Positions 1 to 39,568 of a stretch of 64,000 nucleotides of DNA are shown here, in pieces. Origin of the DNA: a virus; the IMG/VR virus record IMGVR_UViG_3300043410_001917, positions 3,331 through 67,330 of that record; one strand, given 5' to 3'. The notes below the pieces were generated by a model. The model worked only from the letters and a program-made list of their open reading frames with translations. It did not search any database and was not told the origin of the DNA. The translations under genes were made by a program, and so were the position numbers. Each line of letters begins with the position of its first letter. The stretch's first letter is position 1.

Positions 1-573
1 ACAGGTTTTGATAAATATTTCAATGATATTATGTTGATGGAATTGAGAGAAGAACGTGACAACAATAGGTTTGATATCTATAATATATGGAATGTTAAAT
101 CGGAAAAGTTGCAAATGGTGAAGGAGAAATTGTTAGAATTACACAAACAAGAACTGTTTGAGTATTTGAATCAAAATCATCCAGCTGGTTATGAACCATA
201 TCTATCAAATGGTTGGTTGAATTATTTTAATACCGGAGAAGGTCTGACTTTACATGACCATGCAGGATCTTTACTGGCTGCAACATATTATGTAAGTGTG
301 CCAGAAAATTCAGGCGATATATATTTTAATGATCCTAGAGGTGCGGTCGATTGGGATTGGCGCTGTGATGGAAAAGTTAAATACACTTCCAAGTTAATTA
401 GAATCAAACCAAAAGCGGGCCAAATTATTATGTTTCCTGCATTTCTCTTTCATGGTGTCGAAGAAAACAAATCAAATAAACCAAGAATTACAGTTACAAC
501 AAATATAATAAATGGAGACATAAAAAACCCTCCAAAAACATTAATAAATAAGCTCTATGATAAACTACTCTAA
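1..573 (+). CDS. 2OG-Fe(II) oxygenase (TIGR02466-like), possibly 5'-truncated by the window edge
   Basis: HDH...YYV...DPRG...FPAFLFHGV...R jelly-roll motifs; frame is open from base 1. Confidence 0.8.
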   Translation, partial: TGFDKYFNDIMLMELREERDNNRFDIYNIWNVKSEKLQMVKEKLLELHKQELFEYLNQNHPAGYEPYLSNGWLNYFNTGEGLTLHDHAGSLLAATYYVSVPENSGDIYFNDPRGAVDWDWRCDGKVKYTSKLIRIKPKAGQIIMFPAFLFHGVEENKSNKPRITVTTNIINGDIKNPPKTLINKLYDKLL

Positions 574-585
574 AACGGAATAAAA

Positions 586-993
586 ATGACCACGCCAACC
601 TCAGGTGCGATATCCTTCTCCAATGTTAATTCTGAAACAGGCCTTGCTGCTGGTGGAGCTTCTTCCAACATGAGTTGGGTTAAGGACAATTCGAAAACCA
701 GTGTTGGTGGAAGCACCGGTGTAGTCAAAGACATGGGTTCATTATACAATAAGGCCTATTATCAAAACAATATGGGTGGTGCTTGTAATAATGGTAACTG
801 CACCAATCAATGTAATTGTGGTAATATAAATTGTAATAATTGTGTTATTAGTGGAACTGTAAATTGTGCTAATTGTGACACTCAAAAATATTTACAACCA
901 AATTGTAATTGTAATTGCACATATAATTGCACTACCACGACCACCTCATACAATTGTAATTGTGATTGTTGGATTTGTGCTTGCACTTGGTAA
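586..993 (+). CDS. Cys/Asn-rich small protein; candidate radical-SAM substrate with a fibre-adhesin-like N-terminus
   Basis: 17 Cys in residues 67-135, 12 of them in Asn-Cys pairs; N-terminus PTSGAISFSNVNSETG; adjacent to rSAM/SPASM gene. Confidence 0.7.
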   Translation: MTTPTSGAISFSNVNSETGLAAGGASSNMSWVKDNSKTSVGGSTGVVKDMGSLYNKAYYQNNMGGACNNGNCTNQCNCGNINCNNCVISGTVNCANCDTQKYLQPNCNCNCTYNCTTTTTSYNCNCDCWICACTW

Positions 994-1020
994 TTTAATA
1001 CATTAATTTATAGGATAATT

Positions 1021-2460
1021 ATGAAATTTGAGATTCTTGCTGAACACTATACTGGTGATAGAAAAACATTCATTTATGACAATGAAACGAATATACTATC
1101 AACTGAAGATGGATTTGTTTTTGAATATCCAGAAATTAAACAACACAATCTAAAAGAAACTAAACCATTTTCAAAATATGATCCTTTAAAAAAATCAAAA
1201 GATATTACACTTATTAAGATTCAATTAGGATTATCTTGTAATTACACTTGTGATTATTGTTCACAACGTTTTGTTGAACGTCCACCAGAAACATCCAAAA
1301 AAGACATTGAAGATTTTATGAAAAAATTGGAAGTGTTGAATATAACTGAAGAACGTGGATTGCGTGTTGAATTTTGGGGTGGAGAACCTCTTGTTTACTG
1401 GAAAACCTTAAAACCTTTAGCTGAAGCAATTGCTGAAAAATTTGGTCATTGGAAAAATAAACCAAGCTTTGGTATGGTAACTAATGGTTCACTTTTAACA
1501 AGAGAAATTTGTTCTTGGTTGTATTATATGAATTTTGGTGTTGGCATTAGTCACGATGGACCAAATCAAGATGTTCGTGGACCAGATCCATTTGATGATG
1601 AAAACAAAAAGAAAATTATATTAGAATTTTATAAAATTATGAAAACACAAAATCGTATTAGTTTTAATGCGATGATGAATGCTAAGAACACGAACAGAAA
1701 AGAAATTAGAGATTGGTTTATTGCACTAACTGGTGATAAAGATGTTCCGATTGGAGAAGGTGGTATGATTGATGCATATGACGATGCGGCCGTATCATTA
1801 TCAATTTCAAGTAAAAGTGAACATTTTGAATATAGACGAAATGCTTTCAATGATATACACACAGAAGGTAAAGAATTAAATTTTGTGTCGGTTCTTAGTA
1901 AAGTGGATGATTTTGTAAATCGTCTATTAAACCACATTGAATCAAAATATGTTGGTCAAAAATGTGGGATGGAAAATGAGGACACAATTGCTCTTGACCT
2001 GAAAGGTAATATTGTCACTTGTCAAAACGTTTCAATTGTAGAAAATAGTAAAAATGGTGAACCACATTATGGTGGCAACTTGGAAGACTATGACAATGTT
2101 CAATTAACATCTGTTACACATTGGAAAAATCGAGTGAGTTGTGGTGATTGTCCTGTATTACACCTATGTAAAGGTTCTTGTATGTATTTGGATGGCCATC
2201 ATTGGGATGTAACTTGTAATTCTGCATATAGTGACAATGTAGTTTCTTTTGCGATTGCAATTTCCAGAATAACAAATGGTTATATTCCTGTTACAATCAA
2301 AGCAGAAGGTTTACCCCTAGATAGACAAGATATTTGGGGAACAGTATATGAACACAAAGAAGAAACAACAAAGAAGATTATTCCTATCAAATTTGTTGCT
2401 GAAAAAATTGGCATGATTGACGATGTTGAGGTTTACGGTAAAACAACAGTAGGAAGTTAA
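1021..2460 (+). CDS. Radical SAM protein with SPASM domain (peptide/protein maturase-like)
   Basis: CNYTCDYC (CxxxCxxC), FWGGEPL, TNGSLL, ISHDG; C-terminal C..C..CGDCPVLHLCKGSC..C. Confidence 0.92.
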   Translation: MKFEILAEHYTGDRKTFIYDNETNILSTEDGFVFEYPEIKQHNLKETKPFSKYDPLKKSKDITLIKIQLGLSCNYTCDYCSQRFVERPPETSKKDIEDFMKKLEVLNITEERGLRVEFWGGEPLVYWKTLKPLAEAIAEKFGHWKNKPSFGMVTNGSLLTREICSWLYYMNFGVGISHDGPNQDVRGPDPFDDENKKKIILEFYKIMKTQNRISFNAMMNAKNTNRKEIRDWFIALTGDKDVPIGEGGMIDAYDDAAVSLSISSKSEHFEYRRNAFNDIHTEGKELNFVSVLSKVDDFVNRLLNHIESKYVGQKCGMENEDTIALDLKGNIVTCQNVSIVENSKNGEPHYGGNLEDYDNVQLTSVTHWKNRVSCGDCPVLHLCKGSCMYLDGHHWDVTCNSAYSDNVVSFAIAISRITNGYIPVTIKAEGLPLDRQDIWGTVYEHKEETTKKIIPIKFVAEKIGMIDDVEVYGKTTVGS

Positions 2461-2461
2461 A

Positions 2462-3172
2462 ATGTCTGAACATTTAAACAATAACATAGAAATATTAAAA
2501 AAAGTATCCGGATGTAATGTTGAGTTGGTGAATATACCACCTCTAATAAAATCGCAAATTGATGTTGAAAGTGTGATGTTTAAATTTACAAAAAAGGGTA
2601 GAGTAGTAAATTTAATAATTCCATCTATATCTGCTGATTTCGACCACAGGTCTACAAATACACATGAAAAATCAGAAGATTTTTTATATGCTGTTAAACA
2701 AATAATGTCAATTTTAGAATCTAACAATCAAGATGAAATTATAAAATTAAAAACTGAAATGCGAGGTGGTGGCCACGATGCACCTTGGCCAGAAATTTTG
2801 TGGCCATTATCTTTTTTTATTGACACTTCAACACATAGAATTATTATTATGAGATATGTGTATCTTGTTACCGAATATGACGAGTGTTTATCATTATTGG
2901 TTGAAGGATTAAAAAAAATTGAAGGTGTTGTAAAAGTAGAAGTGAGAAAACGTTTAGAAGATAAAGATAATGATGTATATTTTATTAGTTGCCACATTGA
3001 TGATTTGATTTATCCTGGTATAACCAACTCTATGGTTGATTGTCATTCAGATGTTGAAACACATGAAATGATAATTCAAAATGTCATCACAACGATACAC
3101 AGTAACAAAATTAGAAACACAATGATGAATGATAGTATGCATTTTAACGAGGAAATTCATACACAACAATGA
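2462..3172 (+). CDS. Hypothetical protein within the enzyme cluster
   Basis: 236-aa ORF starting 1 nt after the rSAM stop; no motif recognised. Confidence 0.6.
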   Translation: MSEHLNNNIEILKKVSGCNVELVNIPPLIKSQIDVESVMFKFTKKGRVVNLIIPSISADFDHRSTNTHEKSEDFLYAVKQIMSILESNNQDEIIKLKTEMRGGGHDAPWPEILWPLSFFIDTSTHRIIIMRYVYLVTEYDECLSLLVEGLKKIEGVVKVEVRKRLEDKDNDVYFISCHIDDLIYPGITNSMVDCHSDVETHEMIIQNVITTIHSNKIRNTMMNDSMHFNEEIHTQQ

Positions 3173-3182
3173 GATAATATAA

Positions 3183-3848
3183 ATGAAATGTGAAAATATT
3201 TTTGGTTTTCCTGTTGTTAGGATAAACTGTGAAGATGAATTAATATATAAAAATGAAGAATTAACTAAGAGTGTTAATTTCGTTTTTAATTCAAACCGTG
3301 TTATTTACCGTGATAGGTCGCTAAAAGGTGATTCACATAAAGGTGGTGGTTTAACTACTGCAAGTGAAAGTTATCTTTCTATCGTGGAACTTCCTGGTGC
3401 TCAACCACTAAAGAAATGGGTGAGCGAACAATTCCTAAAAGTAAAAGATACGATGGGTTGCACATACAAAGGTGACTCAATTTATTTCAAAAGAAGTTGG
3501 GCCAATCGTTTATATCGTGGCGGCCACGGATTGGTTCACAACCATGCCAAAATCGACAACTTCATATCCCAAATGACTGACTATGCCCGTAAGGATTTTA
3601 ATCCTGATGCAGTTGGAATACTCTATGTTGATGTTCCAGAAAGTTCATCCAATCTTGTTTTTATTAACAATGGTAGAACCCAAACCTGGATTGATGAGTA
3701 TGATGAACTTGACACACACTGGATTACACCGATTGAAGGACAACTTGTGATACATCCACCAGAACTATGTCATGCTGTGAGTATTCATCATAACAATCTT
3801 CCACGTAATGTTTTTGTGTTTGATATTGATTATGTTGATGAAGAATGA
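3183..3848 (+). CDS. 2OG-Fe(II) oxygenase (TIGR02466-like)
   Basis: SWAN...HNH...ILYVDVP...HAV...R motif pattern. Confidence 0.75.
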   Translation: MKCENIFGFPVVRINCEDELIYKNEELTKSVNFVFNSNRVIYRDRSLKGDSHKGGGLTTASESYLSIVELPGAQPLKKWVSEQFLKVKDTMGCTYKGDSIYFKRSWANRLYRGGHGLVHNHAKIDNFISQMTDYARKDFNPDAVGILYVDVPESSSNLVFINNGRTQTWIDEYDELDTHWITPIEGQLVIHPPELCHAVSIHHNNLPRNVFVFDIDYVDEE

Positions 3849-4371
3849 AAATCTTTTTGCTACTCCAATCTGGACACACAAACTAGATAAAGAAACAAAT
3901 GATAATATTAAACAAGAAATTGTTAATTATCAGAAAAACACTAATCTGTTTGACTCGGATACCACTGGTATCAAAAAACTAAAAAATACCATTGTTGAAG
4001 CATACGATTCTATTGCCATCGACCACCATTTTATGCGATACTATGGTGAAGTACATGGTCGACTAAATGTAATTGGTTATGGTGTTTGTGATACACCACA
4101 TAATCATATTGGTAAAATGCTTGTTGGTGTTTACTATGTGCAGGTTGGTGAAAATACAGGTGATATTTTGTTACATGACCCAAGAGGTGGAGTCAACTGG
4201 CAGAATTTAAATTTTGATCCACAAGAAAAAGATCCTAATAAAACTTGTAGAACATATCATAGAATTAAACCTGAAAATGGTTTCTTAATTTTGTTTCCTA
4301 GTTATTTGGTTCATTCTGTTGAAACAAATCTTAGTCAAGAAGATAGAATTTCTATCGTAATTAATATTTAA
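3838..4371 (+). CDS. 2OG-Fe(II) oxygenase (TIGR02466-like)
   Basis: LFATPIW start, HNH...GVYYV...DPRG...FPSYLVHSV...RISI; start probably 3838 (or 3832) rather than 3808. Confidence 0.82.
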   Translation: MKNENLFATPIWTHKLDKETNDNIKQEIVNYQKNTNLFDSDTTGIKKLKNTIVEAYDSIAIDHHFMRYYGEVHGRLNVIGYGVCDTPHNHIGKMLVGVYYVQVGENTGDILLHDPRGGVNWQNLNFDPQEKDPNKTCRTYHRIKPENGFLILFPSYLVHSVETNLSQEDRISIVINI

Positions 4372-4380
4372 GGAACATAT

Positions 4381-5910
4381 ATGAAATTTATAGTTGTTGG
4401 TGGTGGAACTTCTGGTTGGTTGACCGCATTATTCACACGAAAAATTTTCCCTGATGCAGAAATAAAAGTTATTGCCAGCAGCGAAATTGGTATACTTGGA
4501 GCTGGAGAAGGTTCGACACCGCAATTCCCACAATTTTTAAAAAGAATTGATATTTCACCATCCGATATCATCAAAAATGCAAAAGGCACACTTAAAAACG
4601 GAATCAAATTTACAAATTGGAACGGTGATGGTGAACACTATTATCATGGATTTCAAGACAATTTAGATTATCTGAAAAAAACAAATTACAACTATCGTGC
4701 TGAATATCTAAACAAAATTAAAAATAATAAATGTTTGGATGATTTACATTTAACTCCATATATTTCTGAACAAAAACAAGTAAAATATAGGAAAGATACA
4801 AATGAACCTGTTGGCCAAGATTCACTACATTTCGATGCAAACTTATTAGCCAAATATTTACAAAGTGTTGCATTTCAAAGAAACATTGAATTGATTGATG
4901 ATGAGGTTGTGGGTATCAATACACATGAAGATAATTACATTAAATCATTGACATTAAAGAATAAGGGTGAAGAAACTTTAGATTTTGTTTTTGATTGCAC
5001 AGGATTTAGACGATTAATCATTGGTGATTTTTATAAAACCAAATGGAACTCATACAAAGACAAGTTACCAATGAATCGTGCTATGCCATTTTTTATTCAA
5101 AATGAAGGTGAACAATTACCTCCATATACAGAATCTATTGCAATGAAATACGGTTGGATTTGGAAGATTCCTGTTCAGGGTAGATATGGGTGTGGTTATG
5201 TGTTTGATTCTAGTTTCGCTAGTGATGAAGAAATCTTGCAGGAAATCAGAGATATGTTTGGAGACGATGTTGTTAGCCCAAGAACGTTTAGTTTTGATGC
5301 AGGTTACTATGACAAAGTTTGTGTTAATAATTGTATTGCCGTTGGTTTATCATCCGGTTTTGTTGAACCTTTGGAAGCCACAAGTATTTGGGTTCAAATT
5401 GTCGCACTAACTCAATTTGAATTTAGTAGAAACGAAATATTAACCCGCAATCAAAAATACATTGATAATTATAATCAAACATTAAAATCAATAAATCAAT
5501 CAGTATTGAATTTTATATATTTTCACTATTTAACTCCACGTAATGATAGTAATTTTTGGAAAACATTTAGAGAAAAAAATCAAGTTCTACCTTTCATTGA
5601 AAAACTGAGTGAAATTTGTGAGGAAAATATTCCTGAAAAAGAGGTTTATGAATATCTTACATCAATGGAAAATGTTCGAATTGGTTGTCAAAATGTTTCA
5701 GATACAAATATATTTTCTAGAGATAGTTGGTTACAGGTTGGTTCTGGCATTCGCTTCTTTAGTAAAGATATTGCCGCCAAGGAATTTGAACAAAACTTTA
5801 AATATTATAAACCAAGTTTAGATATGATTGAATTACATAAACAAAACAATTTGGATCTATTAAAACATAATCAACATTTACAAAATATAAAAGAGAAAAA
5901 TAATGTCTGA
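4381..5910 (+). CDS. Tryptophan-halogenase-family flavin-dependent halogenase
   Basis: GGGTSG FAD motif, GEGST, TLKNGIKFTNW (catalytic Lys region), DCTGF, WIWKIP (WxWxIP), FVEPLEATS. Confidence 0.92.
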   Translation: MKFIVVGGGTSGWLTALFTRKIFPDAEIKVIASSEIGILGAGEGSTPQFPQFLKRIDISPSDIIKNAKGTLKNGIKFTNWNGDGEHYYHGFQDNLDYLKKTNYNYRAEYLNKIKNNKCLDDLHLTPYISEQKQVKYRKDTNEPVGQDSLHFDANLLAKYLQSVAFQRNIELIDDEVVGINTHEDNYIKSLTLKNKGEETLDFVFDCTGFRRLIIGDFYKTKWNSYKDKLPMNRAMPFFIQNEGEQLPPYTESIAMKYGWIWKIPVQGRYGCGYVFDSSFASDEEILQEIRDMFGDDVVSPRTFSFDAGYYDKVCVNNCIAVGLSSGFVEPLEATSIWVQIVALTQFEFSRNEILTRNQKYIDNYNQTLKSINQSVLNFIYFHYLTPRNDSNFWKTFREKNQVLPFIEKLSEICEENIPEKEVYEYLTSMENVRIGCQNVSDTNIFSRDSWLQVGSGIRFFSKDIAAKEFEQNFKYYKPSLDMIELHKQNNLDLLKHNQHLQNIKEKNNV

Positions 5911-7447
5911 TTGTATTATTATAGGTGATGGAGTAGGTCATGCAGAAGATTTTAGTAGGATACAGAGAAGTCTAGGTGCATATAGAGTTGCTTCAGAATT
6001 AATAGAAAAAGGTTATTCAACATTCGTTTTTGATTTTATTAATGAATTCACTTTGAAAGAAATATTTGATGTTTTAGATAAACACCTGAATGAAAAAACT
6101 TTGTGGGTAGGATTCAGCTCAACATTTTTTTGGCCGATAGGATACCAAGAAGATTTGCAAAATGTTCTGAATAATAAAATTGAACATGAACATTCTTCTT
6201 TGAATTTAATGTATTGGAAAAATTACACTTTTGTTAAAAATATAATCGAATATATAAAAAGTAAAAGTAAGGCAAAAATTGTATATGGTGGTGCAAAAAC
6301 TCCTTACACATTGATTGATAAGAATGTGGATTATTATGTTTTGGGTTATGCTGATGTGACAATTTTAGAATTGACAGATTTCTTAGCAGGAAAAAAACAA
6401 TCCATTGAACATATTGAAGAAGTAGAAATTGATGGTGTAAAGAAATATAAAATAGATTCTTTCAAGTATGCAGAACCAAGAATGGATTCCATTTCAACAA
6501 GTTGGTGGCGTAAAGAATTTAATATATTGCCTGCTGAAAGTTTACCAATTGAAACTGGTCGAGGTTGTATTTTCAAATGTAAATTTTGTTCCTTTCCTTT
6601 ACTTGGTAAGAAAAAAGGAACATATACTAGGTCTTGTGGTATAATAAGAGAAGAATTGATAAAAACATTTGAGACAACAGGAACAACTTCCTTCTACATC
6701 ACAGATGATACATTTAATGATGACAATGATAAGATGGAAGAATTTCATAAAATGTTTACCAGCCTACCATTCAAACCAAAATTAACTGGTTATTTGCGAT
6801 TGGATTTGATAAACAAATACACACATCAAGCAGATTTGTTGTCTGAAATGGGTTTTGTTGGTGCTTTTTTTGGTATAGAAACATTACAACCGGAAAGTGC
6901 TAAGAGTATAGGTAAGGGATTGCATCCTAATAAGGTGAAAGATAGATTATATTGGCTCGCAGAAAAGTGGAAAAATAAAATAAATGTTACTTCCGGTTTC
7001 ATTCTTGGTTTACCATACGATACCACAGATTATTTTGATGAATTATTTAATTGGTCTTTAGAAGATGACAACCCTCTACAAGAGATTATTTTTTATCCAT
7101 TGAAGTTATTCAATAATAAAACTAATAAAGAATTGGATAGATATAATTCCGAGTTTGCTATAAATCCAGAAATATATGGTTATGAATTCAATACGATAAC
7201 TGATTGGAGATTACCATCACAAAAATTAGATTATAATATGTGTAAAAACATTGCAGAATATTATAATAATATTAGGGGACCAAAAAATAAAATTTCTTCA
7301 TTCACTATGCACACTATGGCAAATTTAGGTGTATCATACGATGATATGTATAAATGCACACAAAATGAATTGTTAAATAGATATAACTTTGAAGAATTGA
7401 ATAGATTGAAGATTGAAGAATATAAAGGATTGATTTTGAATGTTTAA
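5903..7447 (+). CDS. Cobalamin-binding-domain radical SAM protein
   Basis: ETGRGCIFKCKFC, ITDDTFN, FGIET, GFILGLPYDT; N-terminal LGAYRVA..L...GY B12-domain-like segment. Confidence 0.85.
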   Translation: MSDCIIIGDGVGHAEDFSRIQRSLGAYRVASELIEKGYSTFVFDFINEFTLKEIFDVLDKHLNEKTLWVGFSSTFFWPIGYQEDLQNVLNNKIEHEHSSLNLMYWKNYTFVKNIIEYIKSKSKAKIVYGGAKTPYTLIDKNVDYYVLGYADVTILELTDFLAGKKQSIEHIEEVEIDGVKKYKIDSFKYAEPRMDSISTSWWRKEFNILPAESLPIETGRGCIFKCKFCSFPLLGKKKGTYTRSCGIIREELIKTFETTGTTSFYITDDTFNDDNDKMEEFHKMFTSLPFKPKLTGYLRLDLINKYTHQADLLSEMGFVGAFFGIETLQPESAKSIGKGLHPNKVKDRLYWLAEKWKNKINVTSGFILGLPYDTTDYFDELFNWSLEDDNPLQEIIFYPLKLFNNKTNKELDRYNSEFAINPEIYGYEFNTITDWRLPSQKLDYNMCKNIAEYYNNIRGPKNKISSFTMHTMANLGVSYDDMYKCTQNELLNRYNFEELNRLKIEEYKGLILNV

Positions 7448-8099
7448 TTATTGCCCACCAAAAGAGATTCCAAAGATTGAATCTCAAACTTTCCCTGATG
7501 GGAAAAGATATTATGTTACACCAAATGGTAAAAAATTGCCATCGGTAACTACTGTGGTGGGCGCACAGAAAAAACAATCCATTTTAGAATGGCGCCGTAG
7601 AGTTGGTGAAGATGTTGCAAACAAAATTTCCAGACAAGCAACATCACGTGGCACCAATATGCATACGATGTGTGAATACTATTTGAACAATGAACCAAAA
7701 CCACCAGGTAACGTCATGCCTGATGCGAAAGAATTGTTCATATCAATCAAACCATATCTAAACAAAATCAACAATATACATTACCAAGAAGTTGGTTTGT
7801 GGTCTGAACAATTAGGTTTGGCGGGTCGTGTAGATTGTATTGGTGAATATGAAGGTAAGTTATCTGTTATTGATTTTAAAACATCCAAAAAAATCAAAAC
7901 ACGTGAATCAATTCTAGATTATTTCTGGCAAACTACTGCATATGCATTGATGTATGAAGAATTGATTGGACAACCTATTGATGATTTGGTAATCATTATG
8001 GCGGTAGACAATGAACAACCAATCATCTTCAAAGAAAAAACACAAGACCATATTGAAGGTTTAGTTAGAGCTATTGATTATTACCACAAAAACAGTTGA
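7440..8099 (+). CDS. PD-(D/E)XK (Cas4-like) exonuclease common in T4-like phages
   Basis: LPSVTTV, RGTNMH, AGRVDC, IDFKTS, QTTAYA motifs. Confidence 0.88.
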   Translation: MFNYCPPKEIPKIESQTFPDGKRYYVTPNGKKLPSVTTVVGAQKKQSILEWRRRVGEDVANKISRQATSRGTNMHTMCEYYLNNEPKPPGNVMPDAKELFISIKPYLNKINNIHYQEVGLWSEQLGLAGRVDCIGEYEGKLSVIDFKTSKKIKTRESILDYFWQTTAYALMYEELIGQPIDDLVIIMAVDNEQPIIFKEKTQDHIEGLVRAIDYYHKNS

Positions 8100-8124
8100 C
8101 AAACTAAATAAATTGGTGTATAAT
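8096..8124 (+). promoter_or_regulatory. Consensus sigma70 promoter with an embedded late-promoter-like CTAAATA
   Basis: TTGACA (8096-8101), 17-nt spacer, TATAAT (8119-8124); CTAAATA at 8104-8110. Confidence 0.85.
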
Positions 8125-8130
8125 ACAATT

Positions 8131-8262
8131 ATGGATAAATTATTTTTACTTGTTATTGTTGTAGGTTTACACGCTTATTGGATTTATAAGTTGGTAAACT
8201 ATGATTGGAATAATTTTGAAAAAGATTCAGAGGGTGACGATTTTTTGAAACCCTATGAGTGA
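8131..8262 (+). CDS. Small (43 aa) putative membrane protein, probably leaderless
   Basis: MDKLFLLVIVVGLHAYWIYKLV hydrophobic stretch plus acidic tail; ATG begins 7 nt after the -10 box. Confidence 0.55.
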   Translation: MDKLFLLVIVVGLHAYWIYKLVNYDWNNFEKDSEGDDFLKPYE

Positions 8263-8307
8263 TTATGGTTGTATGAAGCAACTAGAAACGTATTCTGTAA
8301 TCTTCAA

Positions 8308-8330
8308 CTCCACTAAATAAAAGTGGAGGT
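8308..8330 (+). promoter_or_regulatory. RBS-sequestering hairpin containing a late promoter, upstream of the HNH gene
   Basis: CTCCACT (8308-8314) pairs with AGTGGAG (8322-8328), covering SD GGAG; CTAAATA at 8313-8319. Confidence 0.75.
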
Positions 8331-8334
8331 GTAT

Positions 8335-8880
8335 ATGAGAAGTTATTCCTTGATTTGTTGTGATGGTTGCGAAAAACAATTTGAAAAAGAAACAAGATAT
8401 GTAAAAGCGGCTGAAAAGAAAGGTAGACGCCTTTACTGTTCACTATCTTGCCATGCAAAACACACAAGAGAAGAAAAGTTGGGTGTTTGGGTGCATAGTG
8501 AAGAAAACAAGAAAATGGCCAGAAGTTTGGCTGGTAATAGAAAGGATGAATATAGTCCTTTCAGAACACTATTAAAAAGTTGTAGAACAAGAACTAATAA
8601 AGGTGGGAATCCAAAAGGTGATTTTAATTTGGATTTACCATATCTCAAAGAACTTTGGGAAAAACAAAACGGTAAATGTGCCATCACAAAGGTTGACTTA
8701 ATTTTAGAATCTAGTTATAATAAAAATTATCAAGCGTCACTGGATAGAATTGATAGTTCCAAAGGATATGTGAAAGGCAATGTCAGATACATTAGTGTAT
8801 CCGCAAATTGGTTAAAGAATAACCTGGATGATGAACACATAAAAGAATTTATCCGGATTTGTAAAATGGTAGTAAACTGA
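8335..8880 (+). mobile_element. Free-standing HNH-type (homing) endonuclease with N-terminal Zn-binding motif
   Basis: CDGC...YCSLSC; GKCAIT...SLDRIDSSKGYVKGNVRYISVSAN; SD GGAGGT before ATG 8335. Confidence 0.75.
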
Positions 8881-9162
8881 TTTTTTGAAAAGTTGGCAAG
8901 ACGCCGGGGCAGCACCGGCCATCTCCACCAAAAGAATTCTTCACCCTGTATAGAGACAGACAAGTGCTATAGACTATACTAAAGAGTTCTTTTGATGGGG
9001 ATGAACCAGTTTCGATTGACAAATTAGTAAATTAATTGGCTACCCGACACAGATAGTCGTAAAAACTAAATCAAAGTAAACGCAAACGATGAAAAGTTCG
9101 CATTGGCAGCCTAAACGCTGACTAGGGTTTCGGTAGGTTTCCTCGTAACAGAATAACCTACT
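8868..9162 (+). ncRNA. ssrA: Circularly permuted two-piece tmRNA: acceptor piece ~8868-8930, intervening segment 8931-8996, coding piece 8997-~9162
   Basis: T-arm GCCGG-GGCAGCA-CCGGC then CATCTCC-A-CCA precedes the 5' strand GGGGATG, giving a 7-bp acceptor stem with G3-U70; tag frame 9082-9114 encodes ANDEKFALAA-stop. Confidence 0.92.
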
Positions 9163-9185
9163 ATCTTTTATTAACAGGAGAAAAT

Positions 9186-9728
9186 ATGAAAAAAAGTTTA
9201 GTTGCTCTAGCAACAATGGTTTCATTGTCAGCATTTGCTGGTAGTTATGTTCAAGTTGAACAAGAACATGTTATCGGGCGTGCAGGTGCTGCAAATAGTG
9301 AAGCAACTTACCTACGTGCAGGTAAGGATTTTGGAGACACATCGGTTAACTTGCAAAGTCGTACCGCTCGTTTTTCAACAAACAGCATCAGTTCAAGCCT
9401 AGAAGGAACTGTTTCTAACAAAAACGCAAGCATTCTTGGTATCACACCATTCGTTGGAATGGGCCACGATTTTGGTGGAACCGCTAGTGGTTACAATTAT
9501 GGCCTAGTTGGCGCATCAACTGGTGTTAAAGTTGGACCTGGTTCAGCATATGCAGGTGTTAAAACCCGTGTATTGCGCCAAAATGATTCCGATCCAAAGC
9601 AAACAGTTGTATACGCTGGTTACAACATGCCTGTTGCCAAAGATGTATCATTTAACGTTGGTCTAAGTCATTCAGGCCAAGACATTAAAGAAAGAGGCGT
9701 TTCAGCTGGTCTTTCTTTCGGTTTCTAA
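9186..9728 (+). CDS. Putative outer-membrane beta-barrel protein
   Basis: Sec signal MKKSLVALATMVSLSAFA, amphipathic beta strands, C-terminal AGLSFGF; SD AGGAG. Confidence 0.7.
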   Translation: MKKSLVALATMVSLSAFAGSYVQVEQEHVIGRAGAANSEATYLRAGKDFGDTSVNLQSRTARFSTNSISSSLEGTVSNKNASILGITPFVGMGHDFGGTASGYNYGLVGASTGVKVGPGSAYAGVKTRVLRQNDSDPKQTVVYAGYNMPVAKDVSFNVGLSHSGQDIKERGVSAGLSFGF

Positions 9729-14423: not shown

Positions 14424-16268
14424 TTACTTTCTTTGATGTGCTGGTCTATCATCAACTGGTTTAGGATTTGATGGTGATGTTGTTTCATTTACATTATTAA
14501 CATTAACATTTATTCCTAAATTCTTTTCTGCTTTTAAACCTTCATGTAATTGTGTATTTAAATAAGTTGCTCTGGCGGTATCATTACTAAAAGCACCACG
14601 AACTTGGTCGACTTTAGCAATATCTACTTTTCCTTTACCCGCTGTTAATAAAATTAAAGCCTTGTTTAAGTCATCTGGATTATCATAAGAATTTAAAATA
14701 TTAAGACCTTTTGCATAACCAGCTTTTAATTTTTCGACCGACAGTTTTGGATCCAAACTGTTAGCTGCTAATAAAGCCAAATATGCTAAAGTAGCTTGTG
14801 AAGTTGTTTTTACATCTTTATTGATTAATTCCGGATTGTTAACTAAATCTAAACCCATAAATTTACCAAGAGCTTCGTAGGTCTCTTTGTGTGTTATACC
14901 AATCAAAGACCTACCTTTGTATTTTTCTCCACCTTTATAACCAACAGCTTCAAAAAATTTACCTGGATCCGCATCTTCTATTACAGATTTCCATTGTTCA
15001 GAGGACCATTTTTTACCAAAAGTAAAATTCATATACGCAGTACCGGCACCTGGTCCAGTTTGTGGTGCTGATGAATCTTTACCTTTTATTTTTTCATATT
15101 TGTCAGGCGGAATTTTAGATTTTCCGGACTCCATATTACGCCAAGTATTTTTGTAAGCTACTGGACCTTCTTCACTTAATGTTTGTCCCGCTTGAGTTTC
15201 TTTTGCAGCAACAACCATAATACTAGCTGCAACAGCTGAAGAAGCTCCCATTCCAGTAAGTTCTTTTTTGATGTTTGCCGCTCTTTGAACCGCATCTAAT
15301 CCTTTTAATCCTTCACCTTCTTTACCAACTTTTGTTGCTGATTTGGGTGGTTGTGGTGCAGGTTTGTTTGGCTGTTTTGTTGGTTGTGCAGGTTGTTCTG
15401 GTTTTTCTGGAACCTTTTCAGCTTTTTTTTCTTTTTCCGCAGCTTCACGTTTTAAACGTTCTTGTTCTTCTTTTTTTAATCTTTCTGCGGTTTCTTGTTT
15501 TTTCTTTTCCTCAGCAGCCTTCTTTTCAGCTTCAGCTTTAGCCTTTTTATCAGCTTCTTCTTTAGCTTTCTTTTCAGCTTCTTTTTTCGAAACATCCTCT
15601 TTCTTGGGTGCTTCCTGTTTTTTAGGAACTTCTTCTTTCTTAGGAGCTTCTTCCTTTTTTGGAGTCTCTTGTTTTTTAGGAGCTTCTTCTTTCTTAGGTG
15701 CTTCTTCCTTTTTTGGAGTCTCTTGTTTTTTAGGAGCTTCTTCTTTCTTAGGTGCTTCCTGTTTTTTAGGAGCTTCTTCTTTCTTAGGTGCTTCCTGTTT
15801 TTTAGGAGCTTCTTCTTTCTTAGGTGCTTCCTGTTTTTTAGGAACTTCTTCTTTTTTTGGAGCCCCTTGTTTTTTTGCTTCTTTTTCTTCGGCCTTCTTC
15901 TCACGGCGAACAACTCTCTTTGGTTTTGGTTGTCTACGTAAAGTTAAAGCCCTAATAATTTCTTTGTGTCTTTTTTGTTCTTGGGAATCGTTTTCTTCTT
16001 TTTTATTGGATTGTTGTTCTCTTTCCAATTTTAAATCGTCACGATTTTGAACCAACATCTTGTAAATTTCACCAAGATATTCGGTGTTGGACATTGGTCC
16101 GGCAGTATCCGTTGTGTGTTTGGTTGAACCAAATTTTTTGTGTAGTATATCACCAACTTTATTGACTGTTCTTTTCAATAACCCAGCGGATTCTTTAGAT
16201 TTTTCAGACACGACAGGACTAGACGAAGAATCGCCTTTGTCCTTTTTGTTATTGCCAAATAAATTCAT
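14424..16268 (-). CDS. Tail-associated protein with KK(E/Q)EAP repeats and a divergent GH19/lysozyme-like domain
   Basis: KYKGRSLIGITHKETY...GLDLVNNPELI resembles the GH19 YRGRGxIQLTG..NY...DL...P motif. Confidence 0.6.
   Translation of the reverse strand: MNLFGNNKKDKGDSSSSPVVSEKSKESAGLLKRTVNKVGDILHKKFGSTKHTTDTAGPMSNTEYLGEIYKMLVQNRDDLKLEREQQSNKKEENDSQEQKRHKEIIRALTLRRQPKPKRVVRREKKAEEKEAKKQGAPKKEEVPKKQEAPKKEEAPKKQEAPKKEEAPKKQEAPKKEEAPKKQETPKKEEAPKKEEAPKKQETPKKEEAPKKEEVPKKQEAPKKEDVSKKEAEKKAKEEADKKAKAEAEKKAAEEKKKQETAERLKKEEQERLKREAAEKEKKAEKVPEKPEQPAQPTKQPNKPAPQPPKSATKVGKEGEGLKGLDAVQRAANIKKELTGMGASSAVAASIMVVAAKETQAGQTLSEEGPVAYKNTWRNMESGKSKIPPDKYEKIKGKDSSAPQTGPGAGTAYMNFTFGKKWSSEQWKSVIEDADPGKFFEAVGYKGGEKYKGRSLIGITHKETYEALGKFMGLDLVNNPELINKDVKTTSQATLAYLALLAANSLDPKLSVEKLKAGYAKGLNILNSYDNPDDLNKALILLTAGKGKVDIAKVDQVRGAFSNDTARATYLNTQLHEGLKAEKNLGINVNVNNVNETTSPSNPKPVDDRPAHQRK
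15598..15870 (-). repeat. Coding tandem repeat, 18-bp unit (36-bp higher order), encoding KK(E/Q)E(A/T/V)P
   Basis: About 15 hexapeptide copies; TTTTTTAGGAGCTTCTTCTTTCTTAGGTGCTTC recurs on the plus strand. Confidence 0.9.
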
Positions 16269-32963: not shown

Positions 32964-35900
32964 ATGGCTTTAAATTTTAACGTTGATCCATACTATGACG
33001 ATTTCGATGGAACAAAAAACTTCCACCGTATATTGTTTAAACCTGGTGTTGCTGTGCAAGCCAGAGAGTTAACGCAAGCACAAACAATATTACAAAATCA
33101 AATCACAAGTTTCGCTGACAACATCTTTAAACAAAACTCACCCGTTAGTGGTGGTCAGGTCACAACAAACTTTGATGTAAAGTATATCAAAATTCAAGCA
33201 GAATATAACGGTATTACTATTGATGTTGAACAGTTTCAAAATAAACTAATTAGAAATGCAGACGGAACAATTGTTGCTAGAGTTGTGGCCACGGCCGTTG
33301 CAACAGGAACATCTGGTGAAGGCGATCCGGCTACATTAGTTGTTTCTTATAAAACAGGAACACATTTCACAGACAACGATATCATCTATGACGCAGACTC
33401 CAATCTAACTTGCCAAGCTATGCCAAGTGATGCGGTTGGTTCTTCTTCAATCGCTTCAATTGCACAAGGTGTATTCTATGTTTTGGGTAACTTTGTTCAA
33501 GTTAATCCACAGACTGTAATCTTAGACAAGTATGGTAATCTTCCATCAAGACGTATTGGTTTGGAAATTACAGAAACAATTTATGATTATGCAACAGACA
33601 ATTCATTATTGGATCCAGCAGTTGGTGCATCCAACTATCAAGCACCAGGTGCAGACCGTTATGTAATCAGTCTACAATTATCTTCTAGACCATTATATCT
33701 TGGTGATGATGCTTTGTTTATTGAATTGGTTCGTGCAGAAGAAGGAAATGTATTTAAAATGGTTGATGGTTCCGTGTATGCAGCCATCGATGATTACTTT
33801 GCTAAGCGTGACTATGAAACCAATGGTGATTATATTGTTGAAGAATTCAAATTAACACCGAAAGTTTATGATGAAGATGCAGACAAATATACAATGACTG
33901 TCGGCAAAGGTTTGGCATATGTTCATGGATATCGTGTGGAGAATCCAGCACCACTTAATATCATTTCCAACCGTGCAAGAACAACTGCAACACAAGACAA
34001 CGAACCAGCATTTATTGACTATGGTAGTTATTTCTTAGTAAGTAATGTTGCGGGTTCTGGAACATATACATTTCCAGTAACAACTGCCAACACCGTAGAT
34101 TTTCATTGTGTTGCAAATACGGATATTAATACAGCAAACGCAACAACATACAATTCTACATTGGTTGCAACAGCTTATATTCGTGGCCTACAGTTTGATA
34201 ATAGTCCAGTAACAGCCGATGGAAGCACATACGTTTACAAAGCACATGTTTACGATTTAGTAAACAAATCAATTTCTGCAAATGTTATTACGGCAAATTC
34301 AACCTCTATAACATTACCTTCTGTTAATGGAAAAACATCTTCAGTTGACCATGCATATGATGGTGTTGATGTAACAATCACCAAAGGCACTAACGCTGGT
34401 GAAACAAGAACAATTTCAAACTACAACGGAACAACCAGAGTTGCAACAGTAAGCCAGGCCTGGAGTGTTACGCCAGATAGTTCATCTGTTTATGTTTTAA
34501 ATTTTAACACACCAGATGTTGAATCCATGGTGTTTACGGGCACATCTTATCCAAAAACAATATATGCAAGTGCGGACATTGATGACACAGGTAAAACAGG
34601 AAACATTTCTTCTGGTGATACTGTGTTCCAAAATCCAAATATACCAGAAATGGTGTACCCAATTGGTAACCCATATGTTTCCACCATCACATCACCATCT
34701 TATACAACATATCAAGAAATTAAAGGTGTGAATTTCAACGTATCTGGTGGAACAATTACCGCAACAATCGATTTTACTGGAAGTTATGCTGGCGTCATTA
34801 AACATTTAGGTAACGAAGGCACAACACTTTCTGGTGACGTTGTTGAACAATGTTACACAATCATTGTAACAGATAGACAATCAAACTCCACACTAACCAA
34901 TGGACAAATTGTTCCATGGACAATTAATGGACGTTCTGTTACCTTAAACAACGATGGTTCTGTTGCAAACTTTTCAACAGCAACATCAGATTTGTCAGCG
35001 TTCACAGCAACAATTATTGCCAAAGTATTTGTTACAGATGGAACAAACACAAGTCATGTGTTAAAAATTAAAAATTTAGTAAAAGGAAATACTGCAATCG
35101 TAAGTAGTAATGCGTCTGCTTACATGACTACAATTGCAACAAATACTTTTGTGGATGATTCTTCTAGTTCAACTGGTCATGTATACATCAAAAAAGGTGG
35201 TGTTTTGTCTAGTGGCAAACAATCATTATATCTTTCTGATGTTAAGAGAATTGTAAAAATCATTGATACAAAAACTGATATACTTCCAACTGTTGCTATG
35301 TTAACGGATGTTTCATATGATGTTACAAATCGTTACATATTTGATAATGGTCAAAGAGATAGTTACTACGACCATGCGTCCATATCATTGAGACCTGGTG
35401 CAGCAAAGCCCGTTGGTAATTTATTAATTATTTTAGACTATTATAAACATGCGGGTGGTGATGGTTACTTTAGTAAAATGTCATACATAGATACTTCAAG
35501 TTCACCAGAAGATTATAGAGAAATTCCAGTCTACGTGAGTAAACACGGTGCAGCTTATGCGTTGAGAGATTGTTTGGACTTTAGACCTTCAAGACTTAAT
35601 GCACAGTCACAATTTGTTTTCCGTTTCTCAAATCCTTCTTCAACCAGATTGGGTGTTTTACAGCCAGCCAATTTGTCAACATTTGTATGTGATTATTCTT
35701 ATTATCTTGGCCGTAAAGATAAATTGGTTATCACCAAAGATAAAGAAATTAAAATAATTGAAGGTTCACCATCAATTAATCCTATTGCACCAAACGAACC
35801 AGATAAATCATTGGTATTGGCAAATATTACACTGAAACCATACACAAGTTATGTTCCTTCAGAACTATCTTCTGGACTATCCGACCTTTCAATATTACAG

Positions 35901-38900
35901 ACTCAGCACCGCCGTTACACCATGTCTGATATTGCTGGTTTGGATACAAGAATTAATCGTATTGAATACTATACCTCTCTAAGTCAATTGGAACAAAGCG
36001 CAAACGCATTACAAATTTCTGATGCATATGGATTGAATAGATTTAAAAATGGTATTATGGTTGATGATTTCTCAAGCTTTGCAGCTGCTGATGTTGGAAC
36101 AGGAGATTTTAATGCTTCCATTAATCGTAGAACAAAACAATTAACAGCAAAACAACACGTTAAAAACTTTCCATTGAAGAATTTGTCTTTAATTTATAGT
36201 ATGAATAAGACAACAAGTTCTGCTATCGCATCACAAAATTTTGCTAAAACAACCAATGGTTCAACAAATTACTTCTCATTACCATACACAACAACAAATT
36301 TAGTTGCACAAAAATTGGCAAGTAGAACAGTCAACATTAATCCATTTGCTGTTACTACTGCAAAAGGATTGGTATCATTATCTCCAAACGTTGATAATTG
36401 GGTTGATTCAACTTACTCACCATCATTATTAATTGTTGATCCCAATTTACATATATGGCAGAGTGGAAATGAATTAAATACTTTGCTCACTGGAGATTGG
36501 CAAACTGTTTCTGCAACATCACAATTGGTTGGTAGCACATCAACAACATCACAATCGACTGTCAACCACGAAAACCATGGACGTTTTAATGGTCCTTATG
36601 GAACAAACGTTGGTTATACAGAACATATTACCGAAACATTTACAACAGAGACATATAAAGTTACGACAAATCAATCTAGAAATGATATTGTTGGTAATTA
36701 CAGTCAAATAGATAACACCTATTCATTGAATAACGGTTATATTAATGATATTAGTATTCTTCCTTGGATAAGAAAACAAGAAGTTGTTATTTCCGCTTTC
36801 AATTTACTATACAAAACACAAATACATGGTTTCTTTGACACAAAAAATGTCGATAATTATATCAGAAAATCAAATGAAATTGAATTGACAAACGTTGCCG
36901 GTTCATTTAGTCAAGGTGATATTATTGGTTACTATTCGTCAGGAACATATTTTCCAACTGGTATAGTTCTTGGTGTTTATGAATATCCAGATACCAATAA
37001 TTGTAGATTGTATGTGGCTGGAGATGGCAAGACAACAACTTACAATAATGGACTTTCATTACAGAATTCACACTATAATAGTGATGGTGTTTATCAAAAC
37101 ACCACTGCTCAAGGAACATTTGTTAGTCAGAAACACAGAGGTGGATTGGTTCAAACTGTTGGAAGTTCCACATCAATAACATTATCTAGTTTAGCTTCAA
37201 GTGATAATACAGATTATGTTGGACAAACATTATATATTACTTCTGGATCAGGAAAAGGTCAATCAGCCGTTGTATCTAGTTATAATGGAACAACAAAGGT
37301 TATAACATTAACAACAGGAATAACCTGTTCTGCTGGCGATATCTATTCTATTGGAACATTCGTAACAAATGAAGAAGGATCTTTCTACGGCGTATTTACC
37401 ATTCCAGAAAATACTTTCCAAACTGGAACAAGAGTGTTCCGTATGGACAATCGTTTGAATGATAACGAAAGCACCATTACAACTTATGGTGAAGGTTCCT
37501 TCTATGCTTCTGGTCTACAAACCAACAAACAAAACATAGACTTTGGTGCATCACCATCTGGTGCAAAAGACACCTTCACTCAAGTTAATAAACAAACAGT
37601 AATATCTTCCGCAACAAAGAACCTTTATAATAGAAGTGTTTGGATTTCACCATATGATCCTGTTGCACAAACATTTATTATAGACAAAGATAATTATCCA
37701 AACGGCGCTTTCTTGACATCCATTAAAGCATTTTTTGCAAGCAAACCTACAAGTGATACAGCTCCAGTAACTTTGTCGGTTGTCGGAACATTAAATGGTT
37801 ATCCAAATGGTTCAACATTGGATAATGGTATTGTTACATTACCTGCATATAAAATTAAAACATCAGAGTCACCTCAATATTTGGATTCAACAGCATATAC
37901 AGAATTTGTTTTTGATTCTCCAGTTTATGTTCAACCCGAAACACTATATGCATTTATTTTAAAATCATCATCCAATGAATATACATTATATGCTGCAGCA
38001 AATGGTGATAATGCATTACCTTCATCAGTTAAAAATCTCGTAACCGATCCATATCCAAGTTCAATCACAAAGATTTCTGGTGCGCCGTATGTTGGTGGTT
38101 TATTCTTATCACAAAACGCACAGACCTGGACCGTGGATCAAAACCAGAGTTTGATGTTTACAATCGAACGTGCTAAGTTTGACATTACAAAAACACCTTC
38201 AATCAGAATGGTTGTTCCTAAGAAAATGCCACAAAGAACATTGATTGAAGATAGTGTTGATTACTATACCAATGCAAACAATTTAACTGATAATATTGGA
38301 ACAACATCAAACAAAGACTTGTTGGTTGATGCTTTCAACCTGTCAACAACAGATTTTGTTCCTTCTTCAACAAAAATATCATATACTTACTCTGCAATGT
38401 TGCAAAATGGTGCGGATACATCCGAAATTTCTGTCAATCCAGGAAGATACGGAACAACCATGTATAACCACATTTATTTGAATGATAATAAAGGTGAAAG
38501 AATCATTAAAGCAAACTCAACAACATCATTCTCAATGTATGGTTATTTGGAATCTACAAATGATGCTGTATCTCCTTTTATTGCCGATTCTGGAACATCA
38601 GTATTTGCAATTCAATATGATATTAACAACTGTCCATTATCCAATAATTTGATTACCGTGACAGACGGCGGCAGTGGTTATAATGTTCAAACAACAACAG
38701 TAAGCATTTCTGCACCAACAGGAAAGAATAGTGAACAAGCTTATGCAACCGCAAACGTGGTGAATGGAGTGATTGACGCAATCTATATCACAACACCTGG
38801 TGCGGGATACATTGAGACACCTACAATTACTATCACAGATGCAAACACTACACCAGGAACAGGTGCAACAGCAATTGTAGCTGGTGAAACATCAAGCCGA

Positions 38901-39335: not shown

Positions 39336-39337
39336 TT

Positions 39338-39568
39338 ATGGAATTGTTGAAAGTTAAAGGCACCAAGCTGGTAAGAGATACCAGAAGTGGTGCCATTATC
39401 AATCAAGACAAAACGGGACTGGATGAATATTTGGCCAAGCGCCGTGGTATGCAAGCCCAAAAAGATGAAATAAATAAAGTAAAGTCTGATATTTTGGAAA
39501 TGAAAAGCGACATGGCAGATATCAAAGATTTGTTAAAAAAACTATTAGAAAAAGGTTCAAATGGCTAA
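39338..39568 (+). CDS. Small coiled-coil hypothetical protein
   Basis: LVRDTRSGAIIN motif plus C-terminal coiled coil; follows the VrlC-like gene. Confidence 0.7.
   Translation: MELLKVKGTKLVRDTRSGAIINQDKTGLDEYLAKRRGMQAQKDEINKVKSDILEMKSDMADIKDLLKKLLEKGSNG

Follow-up and report, generated by a model that had tools for sequence, protein, structure and literature searches.

The gene cassette treated here lies at the left end of a 64,000-nucleotide stretch of viral DNA (IMG/VR record IMGVR_UViG_3300043410_001917, positions 3,331 to 67,330 of a contig of 67,330 bases; hereafter the window, always at its full length). It is centered on a small Cys-rich protein, which we call the ladder protein, and on a putative maturase, a radical S-adenosylmethionine (SAM) enzyme with a SPASM domain. 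The papers cited below by PMC number are drawn on in excerpt, and what we say of them holds for those excerpts. The nearest described counterpart is CrpC of Methanococcus voltae, which installs thioethers on the 28.8-kDa protein CrpA (Dieter et al. 2026, PMC13692751). As in the window, a SPASM radical SAM enzyme there neighbors a Cys-rich protein rather than a short peptide, and the excerpts assign no protease or exporter to the pair. CrpC holds three Fe-S clusters and installs several thioether (ranthionine) links, a chemistry that the window enzyme may share (PMC13692751). Unlike the phage locus, the CrpC/CrpA system is archaeal and cellular; its substrate is unrelated and lacks an Asn-Cys code, and in the excerpts no halogenase, oxygenases or B12-type enzyme accompany it. 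Against the CrpC family model TIGR04463, the window maturase scores 50 bits, the cut-off being 525.

Among peptide systems, NxxcB joins Cys to the beta carbon of Asn (PMC9389541). NxxcB with its precursor NxxcA, PapB and CteB all resemble the window in pairing a radical SAM/SPASM enzyme with a neighboring Cys-rich precursor, and Asn dominates the window ladder. Their substrates, however, are short exported leader-core peptides, whereas that of the window has 135 amino acids and a predicted folded N-terminal domain. Unlike NxxcA, the window ladder is not enriched in NxxC, and the maturase misses the family cut-offs; its closest solved structures are 8vpo_A (E 1e-11) and CteB (5wgg, E 1.7e-5). 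For the halogenase, the closest description is that of SrpI, which brominates the C-terminal Trp of an -LCCCW core (PMC10286304). SrpI and SrpE share with our proposal a flavin-dependent halogenase, a C-terminal Trp and a Cys-rich ribosomal core, a likeness at the level of description; the SrpI pathway, unlike the window phage, belongs to a sponge symbiont and is a proteusin pathway with YcaO chemistry (PMC10286304).

Among phages, Iyer et al. (2010; PMC2938197) described cyanophage arrays of dioxygenases and halogenases, for which they proposed small-molecule synthesis. These arrays, together with VirX1 (PDB 6qgm), are like the window cassette in that T4-like phages carry several 2-oxoglutarate (2OG)-type oxygenases beside Trp-halogenase-family genes in a variable region. 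For these arrays the excerpts mention neither a Cys-rich substrate nor a radical SAM maturase, whereas the window cassette has a protein substrate that can be named (PMC2938197). In a paper of 2025, a radical SAM 'maturase' of a cyanophage figures as an 'antibiotic synthesis gene', and the excerpts name no substrate for it (PMC12801897). Full-text literature outside subscription journals and preprint supplements yielded no description of phages that pair an Asn-Cys ladder protein with such a maturase, and a literature search for 'OhkG' returned just unrelated eye-lens papers.

An eight-gene cassette between PhoH and an exonuclease

We lean towards reading the stretch from 53 bases left of window base 1 to position 7447 as a late-expressed protein-maturation cassette that makes a cross-linked, tailored ladder protein, probably for the virion. 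Window positions 1-7447 hold eight plus-strand open reading frames (ORFs), tightly packed at spacings of -41 to +27 bases. Library searches assign six of them to enzymes and one to the Cys-rich protein, leaving one of unknown family; the earlier sequence-only reading, which saw eight packed co-oriented genes with six tailoring enzymes around a Cys-rich protein, is borne out by the ORF list and these searches. The features, in window coordinates, are as follows.

1..573, plus strand: first 2OG-FeII_Oxy_5 oxygenase (PF13759, E 1.1e-20; full gene 208 amino acids), the left end of the cassette
543..550, plus strand: motif resembling a T4-type late promoter, AATAAATA, 42 bases ahead of the ladder gene start
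586..993, plus strand: Asn-Cys ladder protein, the presumed substrate (135 amino acids, 17 Cys, 24 Asn)
1021..2460, plus strand: radical SAM/SPASM maturase (PF04055, E 4.1e-10; phrog_1802, 1.9e-63)
2462..3172, plus strand: 'post-rSAM' protein of 236 amino acids, fast-evolving, recognized by a profile of positional homologues
3183..3848, plus strand: second 2OG-FeII_Oxy_5 oxygenase, divergent (PF13759, E 1.4e-6; phrog_81, 6e-19)
3808..4371, plus strand: third 2OG-FeII_Oxy_5 oxygenase (PF13759, E 3.4e-19)
4381..5910, plus strand: flavin-dependent enzyme of the Trp-halogenase family (PF04820, E 1.2e-97, 328 bits)
5903..7447, plus strand: B12-type (class B-like) radical SAM enzyme (PF04055, E 3.1e-13), the right end of the cassette

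The largest overlap, 41 bases between the second and third oxygenase genes (3183-3848 and 3808-4371), drops to about 11-17 bases if the latter, the sixth gene, begins at 3832 or 3838, and comparison of its N-terminus with that of the first oxygenase makes one of these probably the true start. An earlier expectation that the cluster might extend left of base 1 holds for the 53 bases by which the first gene begins outside the window, and for nothing further: a PhoH gene (PF02562, E 3.7e-38) stands immediately upstream of the first oxygenase. On the right, the eighth gene overlaps a PD-(D/E)XK exonuclease gene (7440-8099), and the same slot between PhoH and exonuclease frames related cassettes in other T4-like phages. 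That no protease or exporter is visible had also been noted, and searches of Pfam, NCBIfam and PHROG indeed found no protease or transporter within the cassette; the ORF list and family searches likewise gave no signal peptide there.

The G+C content is 0.305-0.324 over positions 1-8000, against 0.306-0.411 (mostly above 0.33) across the remaining window. A scan of positions 1-9200 for sigma-70 promoters and terminators gave counts no higher than chance, and a nucleotide search of positions 1-8100 against GenBank phages gave no match. The cassette recurs nearly unchanged in a run from another study, whose contigs span positions 1-7469 with 37 letters differing, and the metagenomic sequencing runs that contain it are freshwater or aquatic. 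The window also encodes gp59, gp32, baseplate genes, a 2123-residue DUF4815 protein and several fiber genes, and therefore belongs to a T4-like phage.

We propose a course of maturation whose chemical steps are drawn by analogy with the systems described above. The 135-residue protein (586-993) would serve as substrate; the radical SAM/SPASM enzyme would take hydrogen from ladder residues and bond Cys sulfurs to side-chain or alpha carbons, and several thioether cross-links would lock the ladder. The flavin-dependent halogenase would halogenate the C-terminal Trp, and the three oxygenases, with their HxH...H motif, would hydroxylate ladder residues. Since an Asp/Asn beta-hydroxylase takes their place in sister cassettes, Asn suggests itself as their target. 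Methylation of an unactivated carbon would fall to the B12-like radical SAM enzyme. With neither leader protease nor exporter in the cassette, the product would remain a whole protein; its gene would be transcribed from a T4-type late promoter of its own, and the protein would end up on the virion, most plausibly at a fiber tip. The proposal in its fullest form, in which a late mini-protein is thioether-stapled, Trp-halogenated, hydroxylated, methylated and then mounted on a tail fiber, is one that we put forward tentatively: it would amount to the enzymology of peptides made by the ribosome and modified after translation (RiPPs) applied by a phage to its own particle.

The ladder protein and its putative maturase

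The ladder protein consists of an N-terminal domain (N-domain, residues 1-62) followed by a 73-residue ladder that holds all 17 Cys and 12 Asn-Cys dipeptides and ends in a C-terminal Trp. No match was found in Pfam, NCBIfam or PHROG, nor by tblastn against GenBank phages. Of the candidates for its family, 169 yielded 161 relatives of near length and 569 yielded 238 longer ones, and a set of this size indicates that the Cys-rich ORF is a real gene. An alignment of 89 short members places the conserved framework at residues 65-133, with almost every Cys preceded by Asn. The 12 Asn-Cys (NC) dipeptides of the window ladder compare with 4.0 in composition-preserving shuffles (n = 5000), none of which reached 12. 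NxxC spacing, by the same measure, is not enriched (6 against 3.9, with 728 of the 5000 shuffles reaching 6).

In an AlphaFold2 model built with the family alignment, residues 1-60 have a predicted local distance difference test score (pLDDT) of 70-86 and most of the ladder lies below 50, so that the N-terminus is predicted to be a domain and not a disordered leader. The window substrate differs in this and other respects from a classical RiPP precursor, which is short, with a disordered leader, a RiPP recognition element, and a leader protease and/or exporter. Foldseek returned no match of the model in the PDB, VIA-align wide none with a Z of 2 or more, and the N-domain has no significant PDB match by sequence or fold. 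The single significant match in a fold search of BFVD is an uncharacterized phage protein of 46% identity, probably itself a ladder family member. As for an N-terminal docking module like that of Gp38-type fiber-tip adhesins, Gp38-domain proteins are named in just two weak BFVD rows (E 1.4 and 2.6), and none of the 89 family members matches the Gp38 Pfam models at E up to 1. Searched alone against 1.84 billion representatives, the N-domain gave 14 matches, 13 of which are family members; the fourteenth, a 1182-residue repeat protein, was judged compositional. At the sensitivity of that search, no fusion of the N-domain to other tails was seen.

The maturase carries the CxxxCxxC motif of radical SAM enzymes (C73, C77 and C80), which is invariant in all 65 distinct phage homologues, as are the SPASM cysteines C315, C334, C374, C377, C383, C387 and C399. 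Both SPASM motif blocks were located by pattern, the seven-Cys formula of the domain being Cx9-15Gx4C ... Cx2Cx5Cx3C ... C. No Pfam domain was found in residues 1-70.

Pairing ties this enzyme to the ladder protein. The association of the radical SAM gene with the Cys-rich ORF, which the sequence-only reading had named as a check, was followed from both sides and is strong. Among viral loci anchored on the ladder (the best 80 of 118 confirmed relatives, retrieved by family alignment), the maturase adjoins the ladder gene in 79 of 80, the sole exception being L045, where the contig end cuts the locus. Among bacterial-genome loci anchored on the enzyme (the best 80 of 214, retrieved by maturase alignment), an NC-x-C-x-C ladder ORF is present in 61 of 80, and 18 of the 19 without one have less than 2.5 kb upstream of the enzyme gene. 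Most of these bacterial loci resemble prophage regions and come from freshwater Burkholderiales. Which of the two genes stands first varies between lineages, and their adjacency is therefore not simple shared synteny. We regard the maturase and the ladder protein as very probably an enzyme and its substrate, and the earlier suggestion of a multi-enzyme pathway acting on the phage's own Cys-rich protein is supported both by this pairing and by the link between halogenase and Trp described below, its chemistry being argued by analogy.

The type of reaction is a further question. The best NCBIfam matches of the maturase are thioether-forming maturases (PapB, geopeptide, CcpM and QhpD), all far under cut-off, as are all 25 listed of the 43 curated families matched. 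The best score of all, 81.1 bits for PapB against a cut-off of 340, weighs against a firm call of thioether formation. It is conceivable, though in our view rather unlikely, that the maturase carries out something else, such as Cys-to-formylglycine oxidation, epimerization, or the formation of C-C or ether links, or that the ladder is mainly a metal- or Fe-S-binding, metallothionein-like element or an Asn-ladder structural module that the enzyme merely loads or folds. The wide margin by which all curated thioether families are missed would fit such a reaction, as would the annotation of the homologue in Achromobacter phage JWF as an anaerobic sulfatase-maturating enzyme, and the enriched word is NC and not the NxxC of the sole known Asn-acceptor system. 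For metal binding, there is a marginal match (E 0.075) between a metallothionein Pfam model and one of the 89 family members. However, the best family matches are all Cys-thioether maturases with full SPASM domains, and tested Cys-rich substrates beside SPASM enzymes gave thioethers, including one that is a 28.8-kDa protein (PMC13692751; PMC9389541). Thioether cross-linking, by analogy with those enzymes, is the chemistry that we favor for the ladder.

The halogenase and other putative tailoring enzymes

The halogenase scores 328 bits against PF04820, where the cut-off is 21, and its structure-sequence matches are PyrH (2wet, 1e-56) and VirX1 (6qgm, 4.6e-52); it is closest to free-Trp halogenases and VirX1. 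A flavin-binding Gly motif, a Lys, and the WxWxIP and EPLE stretches align with PyrH 2wet, and we take these to be the named motifs of the family in their usual roles (flavin Gly motif, catalytic Lys, WxWxIP and the Glu of EPLE).

Presence of this enzyme goes together with the last residue of the ladder. Across 77 loci with a full maturase and ladder protein (76 and the window), the mature ladder end is Trp in 14 of 14 halogenase loci and in none of the 63 halogenase-free loci, whose ladder proteins end in Gly, Cys or other residues. The 14 comprise 13 short forms and L058, in which the Trp directly precedes the S74 self-cleavage motif. Wherever the halogenase is present the ladder ends in ...CxCxW, and the residues ahead of the Trp vary. 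A search anchored on the halogenase gave 76 further loci, 22 of which hold the maturase (7 of these being contigs already counted); all 21 ladder ORFs called in them end in Trp. The remaining locus, L092, has halogenase and maturase and no called ladder ORF, although the near-identical L090 and L091 have one, and a frameshift or assembly error may be the cause. We propose, by analogy with the action of SrpI on its core peptide, that the halogenase acts on the C-terminal Trp of the ladder protein.

Several observations weigh against so close a tie. Homologous enzymes standing without the Cys-rich ORF would speak against a shared pathway, and for more distant relatives of the halogenase they were found, 54 of the 76 halogenase-anchored loci having neither maturase nor ladder. 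On the maturase tree, halogenase and terminal Trp both change just twice, with one change forced by supported branches, and an independent-pairs test has 1-2 pairs to work with, so that the association cannot reach significance. Moreover, the linked halogenases form essentially one clade, and co-inheritance alone could therefore give the Trp pattern. The B12-binding domain PF02310 is barely detectable in the last enzyme (E 0.005-0.036, 14-17 bits against a cut-off of 32.1), and oxygenases and B12-like enzymes that are gained and lost could act on other substrates.

These observations raise the question of whether just the ladder protein and the SPASM enzyme belong together, with the oxygenases, halogenase and B12-like enzyme as unrelated auxiliary metabolic genes in a hypervariable slot. 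The view that all six enzymes serve one pathway stands for the core pair, and the remainder must be called accessory: oxygenases occur in 52, the halogenase in 13 and the B12-like enzyme in 9 of the 80 related loci. Genes of the 2OG-FeII_Oxy_5 family are common phage auxiliaries (phrog_81; PMC2938197), and the G+C content of the slot is low. Such a collection of unrelated genes would not, however, lead one to expect that the terminal Trp follows the halogenase without exception while its flanking residues vary, that the linked halogenases are a clade of their own, or that small W-terminal ORFs show no enrichment beside unlinked halogenases (6 of 517 near, 11 of 858 far). In sister cassettes, an Asp/Asn beta-hydroxylase replaces the oxygenase set, which fits an Asn-rich substrate, and all eight genes stand close together behind a single late promoter, without a terminator that convinces. 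We therefore consider the assembly of unrelated auxiliaries quite improbable, and a maturation pathway with a constant core and exchangeable accessory enzymes is the reading with which we continue.

The first and third oxygenases score 63.9 and 71.4 bits against TIGR02466 (cut-off 62.5) and pass the Pfam cut-off as well; the divergent second one exceeds the latter by 2 bits. Among 64 family members, HxH...H is conserved in 100% and an Arg in 98%, and all three window copies keep them. The metal motif of all 64 is thus HxH...H in place of the usual HxD/E...H. Window-type cassettes hold one to four such genes. The B12-like enzyme, which the sequence-only reading had called a B12 radical SAM enzyme, has a CxxxCxxC motif in its translation, and its radical SAM core is supported by the PF04055 match, the B12-binding part of the call being the weak one. 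Its 12 NCBIfam matches are all to radical SAM families, with a maximum of 70.7 bits against a cut-off of 360, and 10 of the 12 are named B12-binding or known as cobalamin-dependent; the gene undergoes 5 changes on the maturase tree.

The remaining cassette member, the 236-residue protein behind the maturase, has no match in Pfam, NCBIfam, PHROG or the atlas. It is matched over its full length (E 7.4e-14, Z=1000) by a profile of 23 distinct positional homologues, that is, the ORFs right after the radical SAM gene in halogenase-type loci, and members of this post-rSAM family always stand directly behind the maturase in window-type cassettes. An AlphaFold2 model (pLDDT 78.8) has two alpha/beta halves, for which Foldseek gave nothing at E up to 0.001 and VIA a top Z of 5.7, to a generic alpha/beta half.

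The slot between PhoH and exonuclease carries differing cassettes in differing T4-like phages. The window type consists of a short ladder protein, the maturase, a protein of about 215 residues, the oxygenases and the halogenase, to which the B12-like enzyme is added in some cases. The second type has the maturase, a 300-residue ladder protein, an EF-hand-like protein (122 residues), an unknown protein, an Asp/Asn beta-hydroxylase (PF05118, found in 39 of the 80 sister loci) and, in many cases, a fatty-acid-desaturase-like protein, and a third type has PP-loop and cupin proteins. Such swapped tailoring sets are seen, for example, at L069:3826-4605, L029:6121-6819 and L046:11505-12623.

A late-promoter motif and links to tail fibers

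The word ATAAATA lies ahead of the ladder gene and occurs at 14 sites in the window (11-63211), all on the plus strand, where 28 would be expected by chance. Nine of the 14 lie 11-49 bases ahead of plus-strand gene starts, namely those of the ladder gene and of eight genes in the baseplate and fiber region. Since it is rare, confined to the plus strand and placed ahead of nine starts, ATAAATA is usable as a late-gene map of this phage; in T4-like cyanophages, NATAAATA has been published as the late promoter (PMC2984593). When distinct upstream regions were counted in 31 T4-like relatives, within 80 bases of the start, the word was found upstream of the ladder gene in 21 of 24, and upstream of none of the other genes counted: maturase 0/23, oxygenases 0/39, halogenase 0/9, B12-like enzyme 0/7, post-rSAM 0/7 and exonuclease 0/19. 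The motif is kept whichever gene stands upstream of the ladder gene. So gene-specific a late motif suggests that the ladder gene heads a late transcription unit, as virion genes do.

A second line of evidence comes from the domains that relatives carry. Longer ladder relatives add, right after the ladder, a Peptidase_S74 chaperone, a Hint domain or a familyless domain of about 165 residues. In relatives of about 225 residues the S74 part matches a solved long-tail-fiber chain (6f45_A, E 5.2e-7), that of Salmonella phage S16. The S74 chaperone of that fiber (PDB 6f45) is shared by these relatives and by the 1410-residue fiber of the window, but not by the window ladder protein, in which Pfam finds no Peptidase_S74 or Hint module. 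The short forms, including that of the window, end at what we take to be the position where the S74 forms would be cut.

Gene neighborhoods in other phages point in the same direction. In other phage types a short ladder gene stands directly behind a tail-fiber gene that bears S74 and is free of Cys, and in ten such loci the fiber gene itself comes after a 2118-residue DUF4815 protein. Positions 32964-43790 of the window encode a 2123-residue DUF4815/phrog_358 protein, a 76-residue virion protein and a 1410-residue fiber with Peptidase_S74 at residues 1319-1370. Because the pair of DUF4815 protein and S74 fiber precedes the ladder gene elsewhere, this 1410-residue fiber is a candidate docking partner for the ladder protein. 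In the cultured Achromobacter phage JWF, a fiber gene ends in a ladder and a Hint domain, and two genes past it lies the maturase homologue, with 44% identity over 89% of the query; a literature search on JWF gave nothing on its fiber or maturase. Ralstonia phage RSP15 has a maturase homologue in its tail block, near a side-tail-fiber gene that ends in a short ladder. In Limnohabitans, Polynucleobacter and other freshwater Burkholderiales (L161-L238), the maturase lies about 1.5 kb downstream of fiber-like proteins of other families, and these end in short ladders, some of them Hint-capped. The preference of the sequence-only reading for a modified virion part over a secreted product thus gains support, from the late motif of the ladder gene and from the fiber-type self-cleaving modules on its relatives.

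Other considerations pull the opposite way. The cassette sits in a region of replication genes, about 32 kb from the DUF4815 protein and about 39 kb from the S74 fiber gene. The commonest relatives, of about 300 residues, end in a domain with a predicted membrane helix, which is not a known fiber module, and neither by structure nor by sequence does the N-domain significantly match any fiber or adhesin part. Both the late-promoter motif, a short word, and the genome around it are AT-rich. Finally, the chemistry is argued by analogy throughout. The domain of the 300-residue relatives has no Pfam match, and the atlas gives just viral hypothetical clusters; for the 165-residue domain no longer relatives were found, which is weak evidence. 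This C-terminal domain of about 165 residues, with its hydrophobic helix, is conserved (for example L006:5206-6108 and L017:10001-10903); it may serve as a membrane anchor or as a further kind of processing module.

The matured ladder protein might accordingly be no virion part at all but a late soluble or membrane product that acts in the infected cell or is freed at lysis, as a metal chelator, an antimicrobial or signaling RiPP-like protein, or a factor that counters rival phages or the defenses of the host. T4-type late promoters drive non-structural late genes too, and the place of the cassette, flanked by PhoH and the exonuclease in a neighborhood of replication and auxiliary genes, is what one would expect of such a product, as are the hydrophobic C-terminal helix of most relatives and the lack of a significant fiber or adhesin match for the N-domain. 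In addition, Iyer et al. (2010; PMC2938197) read the cyanophage dioxygenase/halogenase arrays as secondary-metabolite genes, and CrpA, the nearest characterized protein substrate, is a suspected metal binder (PMC13692751). However, the self-cleaving S74 and Hint modules and the position right behind tail-fiber genes elsewhere point to fibers, annotated fiber proteins of JWF and RSP15 carry ladders at their ends, and the cassette showed neither an exporter nor a signal peptide nor a leader protease. On balance we think a non-virion role unlikely, if less so than the other alternatives discussed above, and we judge the chances that the ladder product sits on the virion to be about even. A late maturation cassette whose product is probably destined for the virion is thus the reading that we carry forward.

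Other genes of the window bear on the phage as a whole. Just past the cassette lies an HNH/endonuclease VII-like gene (8323-8880), and positions 9186-9728 encode a 180-residue protein that starts like a signal peptide and weakly matches a cyanophage outer-membrane beta-barrel family. Beside the baseplate hub genes, a 614-residue protein on the minus strand (14427-16268) has a chitinase-class-I/endolysin-like stretch and may be a tail-associated lysin. In the fiber region, a 1956-residue protein (52250-58117) with seven Laminin_G_3 (ConA-like lectin) stretches and Ig-like and TIG domains is probably a large carbohydrate-binding adhesin, and the fiber genes there also include those for a beta-propeller (WD40/lactonase-like) protein (62021-63199) and a glycine-rich-domain protein (59813-60832).

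A proposed maturation pathway for a late phage protein

New in this analysis are the link between halogenase and terminal Trp, the late-promoter motif specific to the ladder gene, the post-rSAM family, one fixed slot filled by alternative tailoring sets, and the enrichment of NC and not NxxC. In the general view, phage structural proteins come about through folding, proteolysis and, in some cases, glycosylation. If our reading is right, virion assembly and host recognition would gain a further layer of chemistry, of the kind known from peptide antibiotics, from radical SAM enzymes, a halogenase and oxygenases that work on a late phage protein. The ladder protein would then be the first virion protein to be cross-linked by an enzyme and the first to be halogenated. 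The halogenase, Asn-hydroxylase and PP-loop/cupin sets would likewise be interchangeable, tuning host recognition or the resistance of the fiber tip to proteases and oxidants.

The cassette would also provide a concrete protein substrate for the long-unexplained oxygenase and halogenase arrays of aquatic T4-like phages, and a source of compact enzymes that act on folded proteins, such as a halogenase for C-terminal Trp and a multi-site cross-linker. The family concerned is large: about 400 protein clusters were found, and it extends to the prophages of common freshwater bacteria.

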